Origin: a bacterium
GTDB lineage: Bacteria; Patescibacteriota; Andersenbacteria; UBA10190
NCBI GenBank assembly: GCA_030698495.1
Contig: JAUYKA010000007.1
Span: 1-60,129 of the forward strand
DNA length: 60,129 nt
Reading direction: 5' to 3'
Shown here: positions 4,951 through 57,506 of the stretch, one piece after another
Position numbering within the stretch: position 1 is the first letter of the stretch
Layout: every line of letters begins with the position of its first letter
Position numbers and translations under genes: made by a program
The notes under the pieces: model-generated
The model's input: only the letters and a program-made list of their open reading frames with translations
Database searches by the model: none
What the model was told of the DNA's origin: nothing

Positions 4951-5376
4951 TTATGGTGCTTCAAAGAAAATACCCAAGACAACGTTAACTACTATAGCAG
5001 AGATACCGATAATAATAATACCGGCAACGGCGTACATGATAATTTTTTTGGCGGTGGCGCTTTTTTGTTCATCGCCGAGAGATGTGACATACATCACGCC
5101 GCCCCAGATAACAGCGATGACAGCAACAAAGGCTATAACCGCCAACACAACTTTTATAATTTCTACGGCTAATTCGGAAAAACTGTTGAATTTTTTGACT
5201 TGCGCGTCCTGGGTTTGAAAAGTATCGACTTTGTCGAAGCCGGTACCGAAATCCACCGACAATTTTACCGGTGCGGTTGGTGCGGATAAAACTGGCTGGA
5301 CATTAAATACGCTGAATAAGAGAATAGTAATAATTATTTTGGCAAAAGCAACGTATGGTATAGTGGCGGCTTTCAT
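4951..5376 (-). CDS. VirB2/TrbC-like pilin-family protein
   Basis: 141 aa with a signal peptide, a divergent N-terminal part and the core WGGVMYVTSLGDEQKSATAKKIIMYA followed by a TM helix. Confidence 0.7.
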   Translation of the reverse strand: MKAATIPYVAFAKIIITILLFSVFNVQPVLSAPTAPVKLSVDFGTGFDKVDTFQTQDAQVKKFNSFSELAVEIIKVVLAVIAFVAVIAVIWGGVMYVTSLGDEQKSATAKKIIMYAVAGIIIIGISAIVVNVVLGIFFEAP

Positions 5377-5422
5377 GGAGTTTTATAAACCTAGCTAAGC
5401 ACGGTAAGAAGGATAACTATGA

Positions 5423-6001
5423 CTACTTGAGCGTTGGAAAGTCTTTGGTGGGGTCATAGTTTTTAAGCGGGTCGTTGTCATTGTTGATAGGAATATCTGG
5501 ATTGGCAACTTCTTCGGGACTGTATGGTTTAACAGAAGGCGATGGCGTAGAAGATGCAGCCGGCGTATTGCCGCTGCCAAGGAATATGGTAATCAACACA
5601 TTTACGGCAACGGCTGATATGCCGATGACAAGCAATCCTATGATTGCGTAAAATATAACTTTTTTGGCCGTCCCGCTTTTCTGGTCGTCGCCTAGCGATG
5701 TGATATACATGACTCCGCCCCAAACCAGAGCTCCGGTAGCAATAATGGCGACTACGGCCAAAGCGATTTTCAAGATAGCCACGGCCAGTTCGGCAAAATT
5801 GTTGTATTTTTTTATACCAGAAGAGGGTTGAAGATTACTGACGTTGTCGAATATTGAATTATAGGCAGATGATTGTTGTGCCGGTGCTGCAGCTTGTGCA
5901 GTAAAAGCCGGCAAAATTCTACTGACACAAAACACATCGGGAAATATTATAGCAGCTGTAATCGCAATAGAGATTAAAGTTGTGCGGCTGTAACCATTCA
6001 T
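5423..6001 (-). CDS. VirB2/TrbC-like pilin-family protein with a Pro/Ser-rich C-terminal tail
   Basis: 192 aa with the core WGGVMYITSLGDDQKSGTAKKVIFYA and an extra ~50-aa C-terminal extension. Confidence 0.65.
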   Translation of the reverse strand: MNGYSRTTLISIAITAAIIFPDVFCVSRILPAFTAQAAAPAQQSSAYNSIFDNVSNLQPSSGIKKYNNFAELAVAILKIALAVVAIIATGALVWGGVMYITSLGDDQKSGTAKKVIFYAIIGLLVIGISAVAVNVLITIFLGSGNTPAASSTPSPSVKPYSPEEVANPDIPINNDNDPLKNYDPTKDFPTLK

Positions 6002-8620: not shown

Positions 8621-8653
8621 ATTGGTTATCTGCTAATAGAATAGCATAAAAAA

Positions 8654-8786
8654 GCGAGAACAGTGAAGACAGTAAATACAGCGAGTACAGTAAATTAAGT
8701 AAATACAGTTACGACTACGACGACTATAAAATAGTAAATGCAGCTACTGTATTTACTGAATTTACTATTCTTGCTGTATTTACTGA
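8654..8786. repeat. Word-built intergenic palindrome, 'TAAATACAG' dialect
   Basis: The left arm is made of GTGAAGACAG / TAAATACAG / TAAATTAAG words and the right arm of their complements (CTGTATTTACTGAATTTAC...). Copies of the same dialect occur at 27247, 36079 and 57434. Confidence 0.7.
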
Positions 8787-11285
8787 CTACTCCCCTATCC
8801 AGCTGGTGAAGGCGGCGACTTTACCGCTTTGCGGTGTGGGGCGCATAACACGTACACCCTGGGTAGCACGACCGAGCGAGCTGACACCGGCGGCGTCAAT
8901 ACGAATGACTTGGCCTTTGCCGGAAATAATAAAGAGATCGGTGGTGCTTATCTTGTCGGAAGCCAATACGGAAGCGGTAACAATGGCACCGGTTTTGGCC
9001 GTTACTTTGGCGGTTTTTATGCCGGAGCCGCCGCGTTTTTGCCGGCGGTATTCGGTTAACTTAGTGCGTTTGCCGTAACCCTCTTCGGTAATCACTAGAA
9101 CTTCCTGGGCTTTAGCGACGTCGGCGGGAATAACATGCATAGATACAACGTTGTCATTTTTCTTTAAGTGGATGCCGCGTACACCGGCGGCGGTTCGCCC
9201 CATAGGACGAACGTCTTTTTCGGAAAACCGAACCGCTTGACCGGCGGCGGTAATCAGCAGGATTTCGTCTTTACCGGTGGAAATGGCGACCCATTCCAGC
9301 GTATCGTCGTTCTTGATGTTGATTGCTTTTAGACCGGAGCGGCGGATGTTAATAAAATTCTGCCGGGAAGTCTTTTTTACCAAACCTTGTTTGGTGGCCA
9401 TGAACAGGTATGCCCCCGATTCATCGGCACTGGGCAGAGCTTGAACGGCGGTGACTTTTTCGCTTGGTCCCAGCTCAAGAAAATTCTGCAGCGCCTGTCC
9501 TTTGGCGGTACGGGTGGTAGCGGGGATTTCATAAGCTTTGATAGAAAATACGCGTCCCTGATTGGTAAACAATAACAGCTCCTTATGAGTGGTAGTGGCC
9601 AAAAAAATCTCAACCACGTCTTCTTCTTTGGTGGTCATCCCCCTAACGCCTTTACCGCCGCGTCCTTGGACTTGGTAGGTGGAAGTAGACAGTCTCTTGA
9701 TGTAGCCGCCGCGGGTGACGGTAACGATAGTGGGGTCGTCGGGAACAAGATCTTCCTGGGAAAAGTCCCCGACTGGCTGACTAAAAACACGCGTGCGGCG
9801 ATCGTCGCCGTATTGAGCTGATAGGTCGGTATAGTCTTGCTTTATCATGCTTAGAACCTTTTTGGGGTCGCGCAAAATGCTTTCCAGTTCGTGAATAAGG
9901 CGGCGTTTTTCTTTCAGTTCGTCTTCTATTTTTTTCCTTTCCAAACCGGCCAATGTTTGCAGGCGCATTTCCAAAATAGCAGTCGCTTGAGCGTCGCTGA
10001 AACGAAATTGCTTGCGCAGGTTAATATGGGCGGTTTCTTTAGTGTGACTTTTCTTAATAGTGTCGATAACCCGATCGATATGATCAAGCGCCTTACTTAA
10101 GCCTTCCAATATATGCGCTCGGTCGCGCGCGCGGTCCAGTTCAAACTGGGTGCGGCGAGTGATGACAATTTGGCGATGATTGATGTGTTCCTGTAAAACT
10201 TCTTTAAGACTCAACACTTTGGGCTGCCGACCTTCATCCACGAGGGCAATCATATTGACGTGGAATGTTTTTTGCAGGTCGGTTATGGAAAATAGCCGGT
10301 TGAGAACTTTTTTGGGATAGGCTTCTTTTTTTAGCTCGATGACGACTCTAATACCATCTTTATCGGATTCATCGCGAATGTCTTTGATGCCTTCAATTTT
10401 TTTGTTTTTAACGGCGTCGGCGATTTTTATAATTAGCTGGGCCTTATTCACAAGATAAGGGATTTCCCGGACGATAATGCGATGCTGGCCGGTTTTGTAC
10501 TCTTCGATATCGGCTAAGGCACGCATTACTACACTGCCTTTGCCGGTAGCATAGGCTTGAAGGATCTCCTGTTTGTTATATATAGCCGCGCCAGTGGGAA
10601 AATCAGGACCCTTAATATATTGCATTAAGGTCTCAACAGTGGCATTCGGTTTGTCTATTAAATGAATGGCGGCGGCACAAACTTCGCGTAAATTGTGAGG
10701 GGGAACAGTGGTTGCCATGCCGACGGCAATACCCAGCGTGCCGTTAACGATGAATTGAGGGATAGCGGATGGCAACACCGCCGGTTCTTTTCTGGTGCCA
10801 TCGTAATTGTCGCGCATGTCTACCGTGTTTTTTTCAATGTCCAACATAATTTCGTCGGAAATTTTTGCCAGCTTAGCTTCTGTATAACGCATAGCCGCGG
10901 GTGAATCACCATCAATACTCCCCCAGTTGCCTTGGCCAGAAATGAGCTCGTAGCGCATGGAAAAATCTTGCGTTAAACGAGCCAGGGCATCATACACGGC
11001 AATGTCTCCGTGGGGGTGATATTTACCAAGAACGTCTCCGATAACGTGCGCTGATTTGCGGTACTTGGCTGTAGAACGAAGCCCTTGTTGCCACATAGAG
11101 TATAGGATACGTCGAGCGACTGGTTTCATACCGTCGCGTACATCCGGTAACGCGCGTTGGACAATGACGCTCATGGCATAGTCCAGGTAGCTTCGCTGTA
11201 TTTCAGCAGACAATCCTTGCTGAATTAATTTGCCAATATCAGAATGACTGCTGCGTTCCGGCGCCGGTTGAATCTTTTTAGGCAT
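8787..11285 (-). CDS. gyrA: DNA gyrase subunit A
   Basis: 832 aa. It has the N-terminal sequence ...AMSVIVQRALPDVRDGMKPVARRILY, the catalytic AAMRYTE motif and C-terminal beta-pinwheel repeats. Confidence 0.97.
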   Translation of the reverse strand: MPKKIQPAPERSSHSDIGKLIQQGLSAEIQRSYLDYAMSVIVQRALPDVRDGMKPVARRILYSMWQQGLRSTAKYRKSAHVIGDVLGKYHPHGDIAVYDALARLTQDFSMRYELISGQGNWGSIDGDSPAAMRYTEAKLAKISDEIMLDIEKNTVDMRDNYDGTRKEPAVLPSAIPQFIVNGTLGIAVGMATTVPPHNLREVCAAAIHLIDKPNATVETLMQYIKGPDFPTGAAIYNKQEILQAYATGKGSVVMRALADIEEYKTGQHRIIVREIPYLVNKAQLIIKIADAVKNKKIEGIKDIRDESDKDGIRVVIELKKEAYPKKVLNRLFSITDLQKTFHVNMIALVDEGRQPKVLSLKEVLQEHINHRQIVITRRTQFELDRARDRAHILEGLSKALDHIDRVIDTIKKSHTKETAHINLRKQFRFSDAQATAILEMRLQTLAGLERKKIEDELKEKRRLIHELESILRDPKKVLSMIKQDYTDLSAQYGDDRRTRVFSQPVGDFSQEDLVPDDPTIVTVTRGGYIKRLSTSTYQVQGRGGKGVRGMTTKEEDVVEIFLATTTHKELLLFTNQGRVFSIKAYEIPATTRTAKGQALQNFLELGPSEKVTAVQALPSADESGAYLFMATKQGLVKKTSRQNFINIRRSGLKAINIKNDDTLEWVAISTGKDEILLITAAGQAVRFSEKDVRPMGRTAAGVRGIHLKKNDNVVSMHVIPADVAKAQEVLVITEEGYGKRTKLTEYRRQKRGGSGIKTAKVTAKTGAIVTASVLASDKISTTDLFIISGKGQVIRIDAAGVSSLGRATQGVRVMRPTPQSGKVAAFTSWIGE

Positions 11286-13828: not shown

Positions 13829-13850
13829 TATAGTTTTTAGATAGAATCTT

Positions 13851-13883
13851 TAATAATGCCGGCAACTAATGCCGGCATTATTA
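13851..13883 (+). terminator. Perfect 14-bp hairpin after rpsA
   Basis: TAATAATGCCGGCA-ACTAA-TGCCGGCATTATTA. The downstream T-tract is weak. Confidence 0.55.
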
Positions 13884-13910
13884 GTGGTTGATTATGTTAT
13901 CATGTTTTAC

Positions 13911-13975
13911 TGGGTCGGAGCGGCGGGATTTGAACCCACGATCCCACTGCGCTAAAGCTACGCGGGACGAGAATA
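13911..13975 (-). pseudogene. Truncated tRNA-Pro-like copy (T-arm, 3' acceptor strand and part of the D region; no anticodon arm)
   Basis: 29 nt (GGTCGGAGCGGCGGGATTTGAACCCACGA) are identical to the 3' part of the tRNA-Pro gene 103 bp away. No 5' acceptor strand is present. Confidence 0.55.
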
Positions 13976-14013
13976 GCATCAACTATTTTTGAGTTATATA
14001 AAAAGTTTTTCTA

Positions 14014-14088
14014 TGGTCGGAGCGGCGGGATTTGAACCCACGACCTCATCGTCCCGAACGATGCGCGCTACCGCTGCGCTACGCTCCG
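14014..14088 (-). tRNA. tRNA-Pro (anticodon CGG), CCA encoded
   Basis: The reverse complement reads CGGAGCG-TA-GCGCAGCGGTAGCGC-G-CATCG-TTCGGGA-CGATG-AGGTC-GTGGG-TTCAAAT-CCCGC-CGCTCCG-A-CCA. Confidence 0.9.
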
Positions 14089-14159
14089 ATGTTATGTCTT
14101 GTATGATACATGTTTTTTGGTGGGAGTCTATAGATAGTGAATAAGTAATATCAAATTTT

Positions 14160-14396
14160 AAGGAAACGGATATTAGAAAGGTCGCTTACGCGACCGTTCA
14201 GTAGCCCTTCGAACCGACTCGCTGTTGCGAGTCTCTCTCAGGGTTCTTTGAAACAAGGAAACGGATATTAGAAAGGTCGCTTACGCGACCGTTCAAAGTA
14301 GCTCTTCGACTCCATGGCCTGTTGGCCATGTCGCTCAGAGTTCTTTGAATCAAGGAAACGGATATTAGAAAGGTCGCTTACGCGACCGTTCAAAGA
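14160..14396 (-). repeat. About 96-bp tandem repeat (2.5 units) of a structured element between tRNA-Ala and tRNA-Pro
   Basis: The block AAGGAAACGGATATTAGAAAGGTCGCTTACGCGACCGTTCA starts at 14160, 14255 and 14352. The intervening segments are homologous and their hairpin stems differ by compensatory changes. Confidence 0.85.
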
Positions 14397-14399
14397 GTG

Positions 14400-14470
14400 T
14401 GGACTCACCGGGAATCGAACCCGGGCCTCGGCAATGCGAATGCCGTGTAATACCACTTTACTATGAGCCC
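14400..14470 (-). tRNA. tRNA-Ala (anticodon CGC)
   Basis: Acceptor GGGCTCA/TGAGTCC with G3:U70, anticodon stem-loop CGGCA-TTCGCAT-TGCCG and T-arm CCGGG-TTCGATT-CCCGG. Confidence 0.85.
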
Positions 14471-14583
14471 TTAAAAATCTTTATGTATTCAACTATATAT
14501 CACCCAAGCAATGAACTGCAACGCGTACTTGTAGTGAACCTATTTGTTTTATGAGCGCGCTTAGGCTTTTAGGGTAGGGTGTT

Positions 14584-14820
14584 TTATGTTAACCGCTTTC
14601 GACGAAACGCAAAGCGGGAGGAGGATTTCAGATATCTTTCGAAAGATGTGGCTTTTTCTTCCGTTTTGAAAGCAGCATAGAAAATAAGATCGAATGGAAG
14701 TTTATTCTTTGTGGTAGCCACGTTGCCGCGTTTATCCTCAGCCACCCTCTTTTTTAAATCCTTGGCTGATCCTATGTATATCAGACCGGTTCGTAATTTA
14801 AGTATGTAAGTATAAAACAT
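14584..14820 (-). CDS. Small GIY-YIG nuclease-family protein
   Basis: 78 aa starting MFYTYIL...GLIYIGSAKDLKKR... (GIY...YIG, Arg, later Glu). It lies 172 nt downstream of tRNA-Ala(GGC) on the same strand. Confidence 0.75.
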   Translation of the reverse strand: MFYTYILKLRTGLIYIGSAKDLKKRVAEDKRGNVATTKNKLPFDLIFYAAFKTEEKATSFERYLKSSSRFAFRRKRLT

Positions 14821-14992
14821 ATTTCTTTATTGTAGCCGCACGCCGCTACACAACAAGTTGCGTAGCTATGCGGGGCATGCCACTTCGTTAAAACTACGCG
14901 GCACTCTGCACTTCGCTTCTGATGCAGTATTTTATCTACATCCCAAGGTGACCTGCCACGCGAAGCTCCTCGTGAAAACGAGGAGCGAAGTG

Positions 14993-15065
14993 TGGACCTG
15001 AGGAGGTTCGAACTCCTTGCCTCTTCCATGCCATGGAAGCGCTCTGCCAATTGAGCTACAGGCCC
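14993..15065 (-). tRNA. tRNA-Ala (anticodon GGC)
   Basis: Acceptor GGGCCTG/CAGGTCC with G3:U70, anticodon stem-loop CTTCC-ATGGCAT-GGAAG and T-arm GGAGT-TCGAACC-type. Confidence 0.85.
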
Positions 15066-27246: not shown

Positions 27247-27364
27247 CAGCGAGGACAGTGAATACAGTAAATACAGCAAGGTCAGCCCATTAATATATTG
27301 AGGGGCGAGGAAAGTGAATACAGTGACTGTATTTACTGAATTTACTGTATTTACTGTTCTCGCT
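27247..27364. repeat. Word-built intergenic palindrome, 'TAAATACAG' dialect
   Basis: CAGCGAGGACAGTGAATACAGTAAATACAG ... CTGTATTTACTGAATTTACTGTATTTACTGTTCTCGCT, between rny and nfo. Confidence 0.7.
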
Positions 27365-35464: not shown

Positions 35465-36082
35465 ATGAATAACCACCCGTCGGGGGTTAAACGAATAGGA
35501 GATTATCTGGCTGCCTTCTGGAAGGCGGTGCGCGAGATGTCTTGGGACACGTTGCATCTTATTCCTGTGGCGGCTTTTTTGTTTGTCAGTAGTGTGCCGA
35601 GTGAGTCTCTGGCTTTCGCGGAACAAGTGGAGTTAGCCCAGAAGCCTTTGATTTTTGAGCGCGATCCCAGCCTGGCCAGTACGGCGATTGTCGGGATTGA
35701 GGCTTGGCCGAAACAGCGTACGGCAGGAGGAGTGCTGGGATCCGGTGTTTCCCGCATACCCGACGCGGCTAAGGAGATTAAAGAAGGCACGGCAATTCGG
35801 GTGTTGTCCACGGCGTATTCTTCTACTTACGATCAAACCGATGCTAATCCTTGGGGGACAGCTTCCGGGACACGCGTACATATGGGCACAATGGCAGCCA
35901 ATTTTCTGCCGTTTGGCACCAAGGTGAGAATCGGCAACACGGTCTATACGGTGGAGGATCGCCTGAACGCGCGCTATAACGGGAAATATATCATTGATAT
36001 CTGGCAGCCTAGTCGGGAAGCGGCGTTGAGGTATGGCGTGCGTGTGGTGGAGATAGAAGTTGTATCGGTGCCATCAGAGTAA
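35465..36082 (+). CDS. 3D-domain (MltA/YabE-like) cell-wall-active protein
   Basis: 205 aa. The C-terminal sequence STAYSS...DANPWGTASGTRV..GT.AAN.LPFGTKVRIGN.VYTVEDR...IDIW is typical of 3D domains. An alternative start lies at 35537. Confidence 0.72.
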   Translation: MNNHPSGVKRIGDYLAAFWKAVREMSWDTLHLIPVAAFLFVSSVPSESLAFAEQVELAQKPLIFERDPSLASTAIVGIEAWPKQRTAGGVLGSGVSRIPDAAKEIKEGTAIRVLSTAYSSTYDQTDANPWGTASGTRVHMGTMAANFLPFGTKVRIGNTVYTVEDRLNARYNGKYIIDIWQPSREAALRYGVRVVEIEVVSVPSE

Positions 36083-36156
36083 ATACAGTAAATTAAGTAA
36101 ATACAGTGAATACAGTTGCTGTACTCGCTGAATTTACTGTATTAACTGTACTCGCT
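36079..36156. repeat. Word-built palindrome, 'TAAATACAG' dialect, overlapping the stop codon of the 3D-domain gene
   Basis: G-TAA-ATACAGTAAATTAAGTAAATACAGTGAATACAG ... CTGAATTTACTGTATTAACTGTACTCGCT. The TAA stop at 36080-36082 is part of the first word. Confidence 0.7.
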
Positions 36157-36224
36157 GGTATGGCCTTGCTATTTTCGTGATATTCGCTATACTTGCTTTT
36201 ACCTTTAGCTAATAGTGCTCTGAT

Positions 36225-36910: not shown

Positions 36911-37153
36911 ATGCCCTATTATGTGTATATTCTTAAAAGTCTAAAGAATAATGATTTATATGTAGGTAGTACGGAGAATGTTGAGCAACGTCTATTCTTA
37001 AAGGGTAGTGTAAAATCAACAAAAGGATATCGTCCATGGGTACTTCTTGAATGCTATACTTACTACACTAGAAGTGACGCCGTGAAGCAAGAGAGGCACT
37101 TTAAACAACATCAACAAAAAGAATTGTTGAGAGCAAAACATAAGGCCGAGTAG
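36911..37153 (+). CDS. Small GIY-YIG nuclease-family protein
   Basis: 80 aa starting MPYYVYILKS..NDLYVGSTENVEQR... The stop codon lies 10 nt inside tRNA-Cys. Confidence 0.75.
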   Translation: MPYYVYILKSLKNNDLYVGSTENVEQRLFLKGSVKSTKGYRPWVLLECYTYYTRSDAVKQERHFKQHQQKELLRAKHKAE

Positions 37154-37215
37154 CCAAGTAGTAAGGCAGAGGTCTGCAAAACCTCTATACGCGAGTGCAA
37201 TTCTCGCCTCGGCCT
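37144..37215 (+). tRNA. tRNA-Cys (anticodon GCA), discriminator U73, unusual T-loop TGCAATT
   Basis: Acceptor GGCCGAG/CTCGGCC, anticodon stem-loop GAGGT-CTGCAAA-ACCTC and T-arm GCGAG-TGCAATT-CTCGC. Confidence 0.8.
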
Positions 37216-37217
37216 CA

Positions 37218-37313: not shown

Positions 37314-37368
37314 ATAAAACTTATAGGGTATACGTTTAGGATTATGAATAATGTACTATTACCTTTTA

Positions 37369-37377
37369 TGGTATAAT
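37369..37377 (+). promoter_or_regulatory. Extended -10 element TGG-TATAAT, 7 nt upstream of the HNH gene's ATG
   Basis: TG lies at 37369-37370, TATAAT at 37372-37377 and ATG at 37384. This implies a leaderless transcript. Confidence 0.45.
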
Positions 37378-37383
37378 TTAAAG

Positions 37384-37863
37384 ATGGGTAGTCGAAGATC
37401 TTGGACAGCTAGCCAACTTAAAAGCGCTGTAAAAACATCATTGAGTTACCGTCAAGTAATAGAAAAACTTGGTCTTCGCCCAGCGGGTGGTAATTATTAT
37501 CAACTTCAAAAGTATGTTAAGGAATATGGACTTGATACTTCTCACTTTAAGGGTAGCGCTTGGAATAAGGGGTTGAAAGGAATTGGGAAGCCGCGTATAA
37601 AGATTAAAGATATCTTAGTTAAGGGAAGTACTTTCCAAAGCTATAAGCTAAAACAAAGGCTATTTAAAGAAAATCTTAAGCCTCAAAAATGTGAAATTTG
37701 TGGCTGGTCAGAACGAACATCTACTGGTCATTTGCCACTTGAAGTTGATCATATTAATGGTGATAGAACAGATCACAGGCTTAAAAACCTGAGAATTCTT
37801 TGCCCTAATTGTCACAGTTTGACTCCTAACTATAGATATCGTAGAGGTAAGAGTAAAAAATAA
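37384..37863 (+). CDS. HNH homing-type endonuclease
   Basis: CEICGW...LEVDHINGDRTDHRLKNLRILCPNCH (an HNH/zinc motif). The ORF could extend to 37351, but the -10 box lies inside that extension. It ends 3 nt before tRNA-Leu(TAA). Confidence 0.8.
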   Translation: MGSRRSWTASQLKSAVKTSLSYRQVIEKLGLRPAGGNYYQLQKYVKEYGLDTSHFKGSAWNKGLKGIGKPRIKIKDILVKGSTFQSYKLKQRLFKENLKPQKCEICGWSERTSTGHLPLEVDHINGDRTDHRLKNLRILCPNCHSLTPNYRYRRGKSKK

Positions 37864-37866
37864 CTT

Positions 37867-37948
37867 GCCCGGGTGGTGGAACTGGTTTACACGCACGACT
37901 TAAGATCGTGTGCCGCAAGGCATGTGGGTTCGAATCCCACTCCGGGCA
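37867..37948 (+). tRNA. tRNA-Leu (anticodon TAA), class II
   Basis: Acceptor GCCCGGG/TCCGGGC, anticodon stem-loop CACGA-CTTAAGA-TCGTG, variable arm GCC-GCAA-GGC and T-arm GTGGG-TTCGAAT-CCCAC. Confidence 0.88.
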
Positions 37949-38157
37949 CAGTGATCCGTACCCCATAAAGTAGACACGGAGGTACAATGTCCATGATTTC
38001 TTTTGTTAGAATTAATCATTAACAAAAGAACATGAGAACAATATTTTCAAATAAACAAATCGCGCGGTTAAAAAAGAATCCGTGCGTATGGCACGTTAGC
38101 GAACGCTCGATTACATCAATCGCAACCGCGCGGCGTAAGAAAACGCAAAAGGTAAAA

Positions 38158-43429: not shown

Positions 43430-43855
43430 TTACAGATCGTCTCGCTTGATTAGGTTCTGGCGCATAATTGTTTTGATCGCATCAACGGTCTGGTCTTTTA
43501 CTTTGGGGTTGCTGGCGGCTACCCAGGTCGCGAAGTTGTATAGTTCTTGATTATCAATGCGCAGCCACTTGCCATTTTTATACAGGAAGTAGAAGAGAGT
43601 CATGATGGCCACTCGCTTGTTGCCGTTTTGAAAAGGGTGATTTTTAATCATCACATATAACAGCATTGAAGCTTGTGCTACCAAACCGGGATATAAAGAT
43701 TTTTTGTCATAGCGGGCGGTAGGTACAGCCAGACATTGCTCAAGTACACCGGGGAAGCGAGTGTTAAAAGAAGGGATTGGCTCGTTCCAGCGCATTAATT
43801 CCCTGGCTAGTTGGTGGGCGACGTATTCTACTTCTTGGATGCTAAGATAGTACAT
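43430..43855 (-). CDS. doc: Doc/Fic-family toxin
   Basis: 141 aa with the motif HPFQNGNKRVA (Doc-type HxFx[DN]GNKR). Confidence 0.8.
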   Translation of the reverse strand: MYYLSIQEVEYVAHQLARELMRWNEPIPSFNTRFPGVLEQCLAVPTARYDKKSLYPGLVAQASMLLYVMIKNHPFQNGNKRVAIMTLFYFLYKNGKWLRIDNQELYNFATWVAASNPKVKDQTVDAIKTIMRQNLIKRDDL

Positions 43856-56758: not shown

Positions 56759-57442
56759 ATGCCAGATTTATCGGAATTAGAAAAAACACTGGGGGTTGAA
56801 TTCAAGAACAAGGATTTAGTGGAAACGGCGCTGACGCATCGTTCTTATTTAAATGAGAATCCGAGGTTTAACCTGCCGCATAACGAGCGGCTGGAGTTTT
56901 TGGGCGACGCGGTGCTGGAATTGATTGTGACGGATCACCTTTATCATCACTACAATTTACCGGAAGGAGAGTTAACTAATTTGCGGGCGGCGGTGGTACG
57001 CGGAGAAATGTTATCGGTGGTGGCGGAGGAGCTGGGCCTTGACGATTTTCTGCTTCTTTCGCGCGGGGAAAAGAAAGATACGGGTAAGGCCAGACAATAT
57101 ATTTGGGCTAATGCAGTGGAAGCGGTGATTGGCGCGATATATTTGGATGCGGGATATGAGGCGGCCGCCGGGTTCATAGAAAGAAATATTATTAAGAGGC
57201 TGCCGGAAGTAATAGAGCAGGGATTGCATATTGACAGCAAAAGCAAGTTTCAGGAATTGGCACAGGAAAAATATCGCGCAACGCCTTCTTATAAGGTTTT
57301 GAGTGAAGAGGGTCTGGATCACGCCAAACAGTTTGTGGTTGGTGTTTTTGTCGGTAAGGAACAGATGGGAGAGGGTAAGGGGACCAGTAAACAAGAGGCA
57401 CAGCAGAATGCGGCGAAAGAAGCGTTGGAGAAGATACAGTGA
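56759..57442 (+). CDS. rnc: Ribonuclease III
   Basis: The signature NERLEFLGDAVL and a C-terminal dsRBD (GKGTSKQEAQQNAAKEAL). The ATG at 56759 is preferred over the longer ORF. Confidence 0.92.
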   Translation: MPDLSELEKTLGVEFKNKDLVETALTHRSYLNENPRFNLPHNERLEFLGDAVLELIVTDHLYHHYNLPEGELTNLRAAVVRGEMLSVVAEELGLDDFLLLSRGEKKDTGKARQYIWANAVEAVIGAIYLDAGYEAAAGFIERNIIKRLPEVIEQGLHIDSKSKFQELAQEKYRATPSYKVLSEEGLDHAKQFVVGVFVGKEQMGEGKGTSKQEAQQNAAKEALEKIQ

Positions 57443-57506
57443 ATTCAGTAAATACAGTAAATTAAGTAAATACAGCCGCTGAATTTACTGTTTTTACTGT
57501 ATTCAC
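57434..57506. repeat. Word-built palindrome, 'TAAATACAG' dialect, overlapping the rnc stop codon
   Basis: ATACAG-TGA-ATTCAGTAAATACAGTAAATTAAGTAAATACAG...CTGAATTTACTGTTTTTACTGTATTCAC. Confidence 0.7.

Follow-up and report, generated by a model that had tools for sequence, protein, structure and literature searches.

What fills the space between two tRNA genes of this genome, and whether the hairpins repeated there work as RNA, descend from tRNA, or belong to a repeat family, is the question that the locus raises. The window, that is, the whole stretch of 60,129 nucleotides that was analyzed, comes from a bacterium of the candidate phyla radiation that lives in groundwater and is placed near Candidatus Andersenbacteria. 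Tandem Repeats Finder placed an array with a period of 97 (2.5 copies, 88% matches) at 14160-14395, on the minus strand between tRNA-Ala(CGC) and tRNA-Pro(CGG), in agreement with an earlier note that had described 2.5 tandem units of about 96 bp between these genes. The array consists of two kinds of module, T and V, in the order T1-V1-T2-V2-T3. The features of the region, in minus-strand order, are as follows.

14992-15065, minus strand: tRNA-Ala(GGC), the first gene of the region in this order.
14584-14820, minus strand: ORF of 78 amino acids with a GIY-YIG nuclease domain (Pfam PF01541), between the two tRNA-Ala genes.
14399-14470, minus strand: tRNA-Ala(CGC), found by ARAGORN and by the Rfam tRNA model (66.8 bits).
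14352-14397, minus strand: T1 module, with the trailer CUCUUUGAAC, the hairpin GGUCGC-GUAA-GCGACC (14372-14387), and the U-rich tail and linker UUUCUAAUAUCCGUUUCCUU.
14299-14351, minus strand: V1 module, with UUCAAAG (14343-14349), the outer stem CUCU/AGAG (14337-14340 with 14302-14305), the internal loop GAGCGA / GAGUCGA, the top hairpin CAUGGCC-AACA-GGCCAUG (14313-14330), and the 3' end CUA.
14255-14298, minus strand: T2 module, the same as T1 minus the first CU, with the hairpin at 14275-14290.
14202-14254, minus strand: V2 module, with UUCAAAG (14246-14252), the outer stem CCCU/AGGG (14240-14243 with 14205-14208), the internal loop GAGAGA / GGUUCGA, and the top hairpin GACUCGC-AACA-GCGAGUC (14216-14233).
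14160-14201, minus strand: T3 module, with CUGAAC, the hairpin at 14180-14195, and the linker; it is the last element of the array, with no V after it.
14089-14159, minus strand: AT-rich stretch of 71 nt from the array to tRNA-Pro, with the promoter-like site TTGATA-18-TAGACT (14125-14154).
14014-14088, minus strand: tRNA-Pro(CGG), found by ARAGORN and Rfam.

The array starts 3 to 4 bases past the discriminator A of tRNA-Ala(CGC), where the 3' flank reads ...GUCC-A-C-A-CUCUUUGAAC, and this is the only one of the 13 tRNA genes within the 60-kb window that carries the repeat. These genes mostly have A and then C after the acceptor stem (U-C in tRNA-Gly and tRNA-Cys), none of the 13 encodes the full CCA, and several are followed 5 to 25 nt downstream by strong hairpins without U runs. 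The intact tRNA-Pro(CGG) gene is followed, 40 nt downstream, by a truncated copy (about 13923-13975, minus strand); this copy keeps the D-arm region, the T-arm, and the 3' strand of the acceptor but lacks the anticodon arm, and it is followed by a hairpin at about 13860-13895 that is common to the convergent S1-domain gene.

The T module is composed of CUCUUUGAAC, then GGUCGC-GUAA-GCGACC, and then UUUCUAAUAUCCGUUUCCUU, and its hairpin is GC rich with a GNRA loop. The V module is an imperfect hairpin of about 60 nt that reads G(A/U)UUCAAAGAAC, (C/U)CU, GAG(C/A)GA, a 7-bp stem with an AACA loop, G(A/G)(G/U)UCGA, AG(A/G)G, and CUA. The 16-nt T hairpin, GGTCGCGTAAGCGACC, was present in three exact copies on the minus strand (14372-14387, 14275-14290, and 14180-14195) and is thus invariant, as the earlier note had held; shuffled sequences gave an expectation of 0.28 matches with up to 3 mismatches allowed. 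The 20 nt following this hairpin were identical at all three T copies and occurred nowhere else in the window. When the two full units were compared, mismatches were found at 1 of 56 positions in the first part of the unit and at 15 of 41 in the last. A long-range helix is predicted between UUCAAAG of V1 (14343-14349) and CUUUGAA of T1 (14389-14395). One tandem variant bears on this CUUUGAA/UUCAAAG helix: AAGAGAAU replaces CUUUGAAC, the partner region has 7 mismatches in 20 nt, and AUUCUCUU is the partner expected for AAGAGAAU if the helix is real.

The top stems of the two V modules differ in sequence and stay paired, as do the outer stems CCCU/AGGG and CUCU/AGAG, and the corresponding statement of the earlier note gained support from a third top stem, AUCCCGC-AACA-GCGGGAU, read at the ends of Logan contigs from the same groundwater metagenomes. 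A fourth, AUCGCGC/GCGCGAU, is probably present as well, as implied by the indel pattern of an incompletely read 77-nt contig. All 24 proposed pairs were standard in every sequence, the third variant included. Seven pairs (6 of the 7 in the top stem and 1 in the outer stem) showed two-sided changes, and none showed a one-sided change; in comparisons among the three stem variants that were read completely, two-sided changes affected 3, 5, and 6 of the 7 pairs and one-sided changes again none. Seven two-sided changes were reached in 1 of 500 shuffles and the covariation score in none, and the signal was lost when partners were slid by 1 to 3 columns. The minus strand of the array folded at −91.6 kcal/mol (z = −5.65 versus shuffles). 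A fixed loop, fixed junction bases, and swapped stems next to a linker variable in length and sequence mean that hairpin formation has been kept; plain duplication would not give swapped paired stems.

To this extent the earlier reading of the covariation as selection on structure is supported; that this selection acts at the level of RNA is one possibility among others. No G-U pairs were found among the proposed pairs, all of which were Watson-Crick, and the plus strand folded as well as the minus strand (−92.6 versus −91.6 kcal/mol), so that an RNA hairpin is indistinguishable here from a DNA hairpin. A DNA hairpin, or template switching from arm to arm within a palindrome, fits the matched changes equally well.

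The T hairpin lies about 10 nt past the tRNA and looks like a putative intrinsic terminator. All three copies passed a consensus scan for terminators (6 pairs, 5 of them GC, a loop of 4, and the tail TTTCTAATAT), and the same scan found 4 terminator-like sites in the region versus 1.8 expected; the U tract (UUUCUAAUAU) is weak. The V/T units have no promoter of their own. Cotranscription of the units with the tRNA would fit their orientation, but a terminator-like hairpin opens every unit. Searches of RNA runs, none of which includes this organism, matched tRNA words only.

Copies of the repeat outside the window came from sequencing runs. Among the indexed runs, 31-mers of the repeat occurred only in two groundwater runs of one study (X1 and X2) and in one lake-water run. 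Contigs with other copies measured 9428, 4377, 574, 81, and 77 nt in X1 and 3798, 2746, and 98 nt in X2, and the lake contig measured 188 nt. On other groundwater contigs, T was joined in sense orientation to the 3' ends of three further tRNAs, each time at an unchanged offset, with contig ends that read ...GCAGGUUCGAAUCCUGCCAAGCGC-A-C-U-CUUUGAAC, ...GCAGGUUCGAAUCCUGCAUCGUCC-A-C-U-CUUUGAAC, and ...GUAGGUUCGAAUCCUACCGGGCGU-A-C-U-CUUUGAAC. The acceptor strands of these tRNAs are CAAGCGC, AUCGUCC, and CGGGCGU, each preceded by a T-arm, GGUUCGAAUCC. At least four different tRNA genes thus share a constant junction, consisting of the discriminator A, C, and then UCUUUGAAC, always in the sense direction. 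In X1, depth over the T core was 286 versus 16 over the flanks (about 18-fold, or about 18 copies per genome equivalent, short-contig depth being a rough proxy for copy number that may mix strains), and in X2 it was 36 over the T core; other blocks had depths of 130 (the V2 block), 77 (a contig with the third variant), and 49 (another variant). Logan contig depth therefore showed a copy number well above one per genome. One short contig consisted of tandem units that all had the third stem, and the far ends of arrays were ragged, lying after the linker in the window, inside the linker in a 574-nt contig, after V in a 4377-nt contig, and before the T hairpin in a 9428-nt contig. Arrays were thereby shown to vary by locus and sample in length, unit order, and distal end. 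The lake-water copy had the same V1 stem and a linker of 14 nt versus 22 nt; since this stem is shared between groundwater and lake, the stems look like stable types rather than products of free drift.

These contigs also bear on how far the arrangement in the window can be relied upon. The junction of tRNA-Ala with T and the T2-V2-T3 block were exact contigs in both groundwater runs, and two runs had a 125-nt Logan contig that matched 14171-14295 exactly. The exact unit 1 linker of the window was absent from the Logan contigs of both groundwater runs, neither run had a contig over 14096-14170 although both contain the flanks exactly, and 14075-14175, which connects the array with tRNA-Pro, was absent from every indexed public run. 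The window's copy number and order of units consequently lack independent confirmation, and strains or samples seem to vary at this locus. We consider it rather improbable that the 2.5-unit array is in part an artefact of assembly, in which a collapsed or mixed repeat was threaded and the real order or number differs. In favor of an artefact, Logan contigs break throughout the repeat, the unit 1 linker and 14096-14170 are missing from both runs that contain the flanks, and 14075-14175 is missing from every indexed run; but the tRNA-Ala-T junction and T2-V2-T3 were exact in two independent runs, and variants of the unit were found on contigs of 2.7 to 9.4 kb. The family is therefore real, and the doubt is limited to the arrangement in the window.

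The age of the repeat was assessed in a sister set of three relatives with an S1 protein 70 to 75% identical to that of the window (L002, on a 698-kb NCBI contig; L005; and L149/L151). Gene order is kept in the relatives, from gyrA through a beta-lactamase-fold gene, S1, the tRNA cluster, and Wzy to an ATPase and NusA. In all three sisters, the genes for Ala(GGC), Ala(CGC), and Pro(CGG) are spaced by 0 to 67 nt, with tRNA-Pro(CGG) 0 to 14 nt after tRNA-Ala(CGC), and both the repeat and the GIY-YIG gene were absent from the tRNA cluster; the syntenic loci of S1 homologues likewise had no repeat. Given the kept synteny, this absence indicates a recent insertion of the repeat into an old tRNA operon that was split by it, and the comparison showed that the family entered the lineage after divergence from its nearest sampled relatives. 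It may thereby have cut tRNA-Pro from the old operon, with the promoter-like site now preceding tRNA-Pro. The GIY-YIG ORF, being absent at this place in the sisters, is a second lineage-specific insertion in the tRNA cluster; its homologues were at most 60% identical and lay in other gene contexts, with the repeat at none of those loci.

Several other features of the window were recorded. An ORF for an HNH endonuclease (Pfam HNH and HNH_3; 37351-37863, plus strand) lies between tRNA-Cys (37144-37216) and tRNA-Leu (37867-37949) and is a second free-standing nuclease gene within a tRNA cluster here. The intergenic regions also contain a further repeat, unrelated to the first, in which a 9-nt unit (ACAGTAAAT and variants) recurs in a run and the reverse complement of the run comes next, giving long hairpins; it was found in at least four places (8650-8790, 27255-27360, 36078-36160, and 57434-57500); the presence of two unrelated hairpin repeat families suggests that such elements thrive in this genome. 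There are also an ORF of the Fic/DOC family (43430-43855, minus strand) and two ORFs with type IV secretion pilin domains (4951-6001, minus strand), the pilin genes being syntenic in the relatives.

Judged from sequence comparison, the repeat family matches no known RNA family. Rfam, at the gathering score and at an E value of ≤10, returned only tRNAs and noise (isrK and SpF41), the noise arising because a tRNA is followed by a terminator-like hairpin. Matches of blastn against phage and plasmid records were at chance level. Among 185,579 species genomes, the exact pattern GAACGGTCGCGTAAGCGACC matched twice, inside coding regions of high-GC genomes; the pattern TCGCGTAAGCGAN{12,33}TCAAAGAAC gave six chance matches in JGI metagenomes, and three exact patterns gave only chance matches in IMG/VR, exact-word scans being of a kind that would miss diverged copies. 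An nhmmer profile found nothing real among 148 loci, and a search with the peptides of all six frames of the repeat, combined into one query and aimed at spurious ORFs on other copies, found no match.

We tentatively favor, at somewhat less than an even chance, the explanation that the array belongs to a young, lineage-restricted, noncoding hairpin repeat family that is tied to tRNA 3' flanks. New loci would be seeded by a process that targets the tRNA 3' end, and arrays would grow and shrink through unequal recombination or slippage between identical T modules. Persistence of the element would need formation of the hairpin, in the transcript or in single-stranded DNA, so that stems would be replaced only as matched pairs. 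The repeat would act on the cell at most as a trailer or terminator, and its main effect would be to end or stabilize the tRNA precursor. This explanation has to accommodate a carriage of one tRNA gene in 13 within the 60-kb window and the lack of a mobilizing enzyme (among ten small ORFs), of terminal inverted repeats, and of target duplications. Moreover, the stems look like stable types (V1 in both groundwater and lake), and swapped stems around constant loop and junction bases are also a classic mark of functional RNA. That the units are functional structured RNAs, made within the tRNA precursor, is the main rival, unlikely but to be reckoned with; they could be released as small hairpin RNAs whose stem sets specificity or could act in cis on the upstream tRNA, for example in 3' end processing, folding, or docking at the elbow. 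Such a role would fit the sense orientation at a fixed offset after four tRNAs, the constancy of AACA, GAGNGA, UCGAAG, and CUA around stems swapped with full compensation, and the linker that varies in length and sequence. V modules, moreover, end in A-C like the tRNA genes here and are followed by T as a tRNA is, AGCGA/AGAGA fits the AGNNA half of an elbow docking module (PMC3664808), and theta ribozymes set a precedent for the processing of tRNA trailers in cis (PMC10879173). A conserved part of tRNA biology would, however, not be absent from the sisters, nor do the absence of G-U pairs, the lack of strand bias in folding, the terminator-like hairpin that opens each unit without a promoter of its own, the unmet UGNNA half of the docking module, the failure to match a ribozyme family, and a copy number several-fold different between samples speak for RNA function.

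The remaining explanations are less probable still. The array might be the remnant of a tRNA gene that was tandemly duplicated together with its terminator, as at tyrT, with V a heavily deleted tRNA copy; V stands in the place of a tRNA before each T and ends in A-C like the tRNAs here, a T-loop-like GGUUCGA occurs in unit 2, and the truncated tRNA-Pro copy nearby means that partial tRNA duplication happens at this locus. The earlier note had likewise pointed to a T-loop-like sequence in one copy, which is correct (GGUUCGAAGGG, 14204-14214, in unit 2 only), and had proposed descent from a tRNA, which was not borne out. On 13850-14650 the Rfam tRNA model matched only the two real tRNAs, even at an E value of ≤10, and ARAGORN, relaxed to thresholds of 70% and 50%, called tRNA-Ala and spurious sites without seeing the units. 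The heptamer GGUUCGA is confined to V2, with GAGUCGA at this place in the other variants, a 4-nt loop on perfect 7-bp stems of unrelated sequence is not expected from decay, and T follows four unrelated tRNAs, beyond the reach of local duplication; we regard this origin as highly improbable. Slightly less remote, though still quite unlikely, is a new type of element at tRNA 3' ends, which would be either a trailer RNA that acts on tRNAs, the swapped stem then defining distinct types, or a noncoding mobile element that copies itself onto tRNA ends, through template switching or through priming from the 3' end of the tRNA. The mobile option would account at once for a junction that always lies after A73-C74, an orientation that is always sense, and far ends that are ragged; a constant tRNA-side junction with ragged far ends is not explained by simple duplication.

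If the units are only selfish repeats, the locus shows that small genomes of the candidate phyla radiation can gain noncoding repeats at the 3' ends of tRNA genes and amplify them over no more than the divergence between close species and that a conserved tRNA operon is broken by them. If they are working RNAs or self-copying tRNA-end elements, they would constitute a new class with a link to tRNA maturation, in a radiation about whose RNA processing little is known. In both cases, short-read assembly is easily misled at this locus, and paired stem changes between two adjacent copies alone do not prove selection at the level of RNA.

Comparison with known systems began with self-cleaving RNAs. 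An HDV-like ribozyme has the layout of a nested double pseudoknot (P1, P2, P3, P1.1, and P4) and cleaves at the 5' end of P1. Here, the sole long-range helix, CUUUGAA/UUCAAAG, encloses a plain hairpin and an unpaired linker, so that this layout cannot be drawn; on inspection, the sequence lacks the space for P2 or P3 and a GG that could form P1.1, and cmscan of 801 nt on both strands at an E value of ≤10 matched no HDV family. The same scan, on both strands and at the same threshold, found no hammerhead, twister, twister-sister, pistol, hatchet, or hairpin ribozyme. CUGAG(C/A)GA...CGAAG bears only a loose likeness to the hammerhead core: it has one base too many and a spacing of 5 nt from the stem to GAA. 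Theta ribozymes are minimal HDV-like ribozymes next to phage tRNA genes and act as cis elements that process tRNA 3' trailers (PMC10879173). The likeness is that a cis RNA element abuts the tRNA 3' end, which makes trailer processing a natural guess for the function of the unit; the hosts differ, gut phage there and a candidate phyla radiation bacterium here. The double T-loop module that docks on the tRNA elbow has six invariant bases, AGNNA ... UGNNA (PMC3664808). In all three variants AGCGA or AGAGA lies on the 5' strand of the internal loop, which likewise flanks a variable hairpin and has a U...A pentamer on its 3' strand, but in this second pentamer (UCGAA/UUCGA) the invariant G at position 2 is replaced by C or U, and consecutive G-A and Watson-Crick pairs give an equally good drawing of the internal loop. 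Readings of this loop as a kink-turn or a bulge-helix-bulge failed across the variants. The boxA core, NGCUCUUUR, is bound as a single strand by NusB-NusE, with G2, C5, and U6 of importance (PMC3177189). The junction of tRNA with T, A-CUCUUUG-AAC, matches it at positions 3 to 9, has A at position 2, and lies in a predicted helix; in internal T units the boxA-like motif is without CU, and YTCTTTRAA occurred 7 times in the window versus 4 expected.

Other tandem or palindromic elements were compared as well. The units are alike along their full length, unlike CRISPR arrays, their candidate core sites misfit the RYYYAAC/GTTRRRY of integron attC sites, and no reverse transcriptase lies nearby as for a retron. 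In type III toxin-antitoxin systems, tandem RNA repeats lie just upstream of the gene for a toxin endoribonuclease; here, instead, the array is followed by tRNA-Pro and then by the convergent S1-domain gene. A MITE or palindrome-associated transposable element would have defined ends, with terminal inverted repeats or end hairpins, and an unvarying target site on either side; here the tRNA-side end did not vary among four loci, the far end was ragged, and no target duplication was seen. REP/BIME elements of enterobacteria are short palindromes at the 3' ends of transcription units, where they can serve as terminators or RNA stabilizers; they occupy hundreds of intergenic sites, can form tandem mosaics of two alternating hairpin types, and are accompanied by a RAYT transposase. 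Our array resembles them as a set of noncoding palindromes with two alternating hairpin types in tandem whose stems keep pairing, but it was found at one locus in 60 kb, with a fixed-base link to the tRNA 3' end, and neither an HUH transposase nor another mobilizing enzyme was found among the ten small window ORFs scanned, nor were terminal inverted repeats seen. E. coli tyrT (tRNA-Tyr) is followed by distal tandem repeats of 178 bp, each of which opens with a copy of the tRNA 3' end; they are present at a single locus and are thought to have arisen by unequal recombination. Both arrays consist of tandem noncoding units directly after a tRNA, on the tRNA strand, where transcription ends. Here, only the 7-nt GGUUCGA, in unit 2 alone, recalls a tRNA, no tRNA copy is detectable, T follows at least four tRNAs, and the unit has a hairpin with swapped stems. 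Finally, T shares with intrinsic terminators and the 3' spacers of tRNA operons a GC-rich stem of 6 bp, a loop of 4 nt, and a U-rich tail and differs from them in that its sequence is reused at several loci and tandemly repeated.
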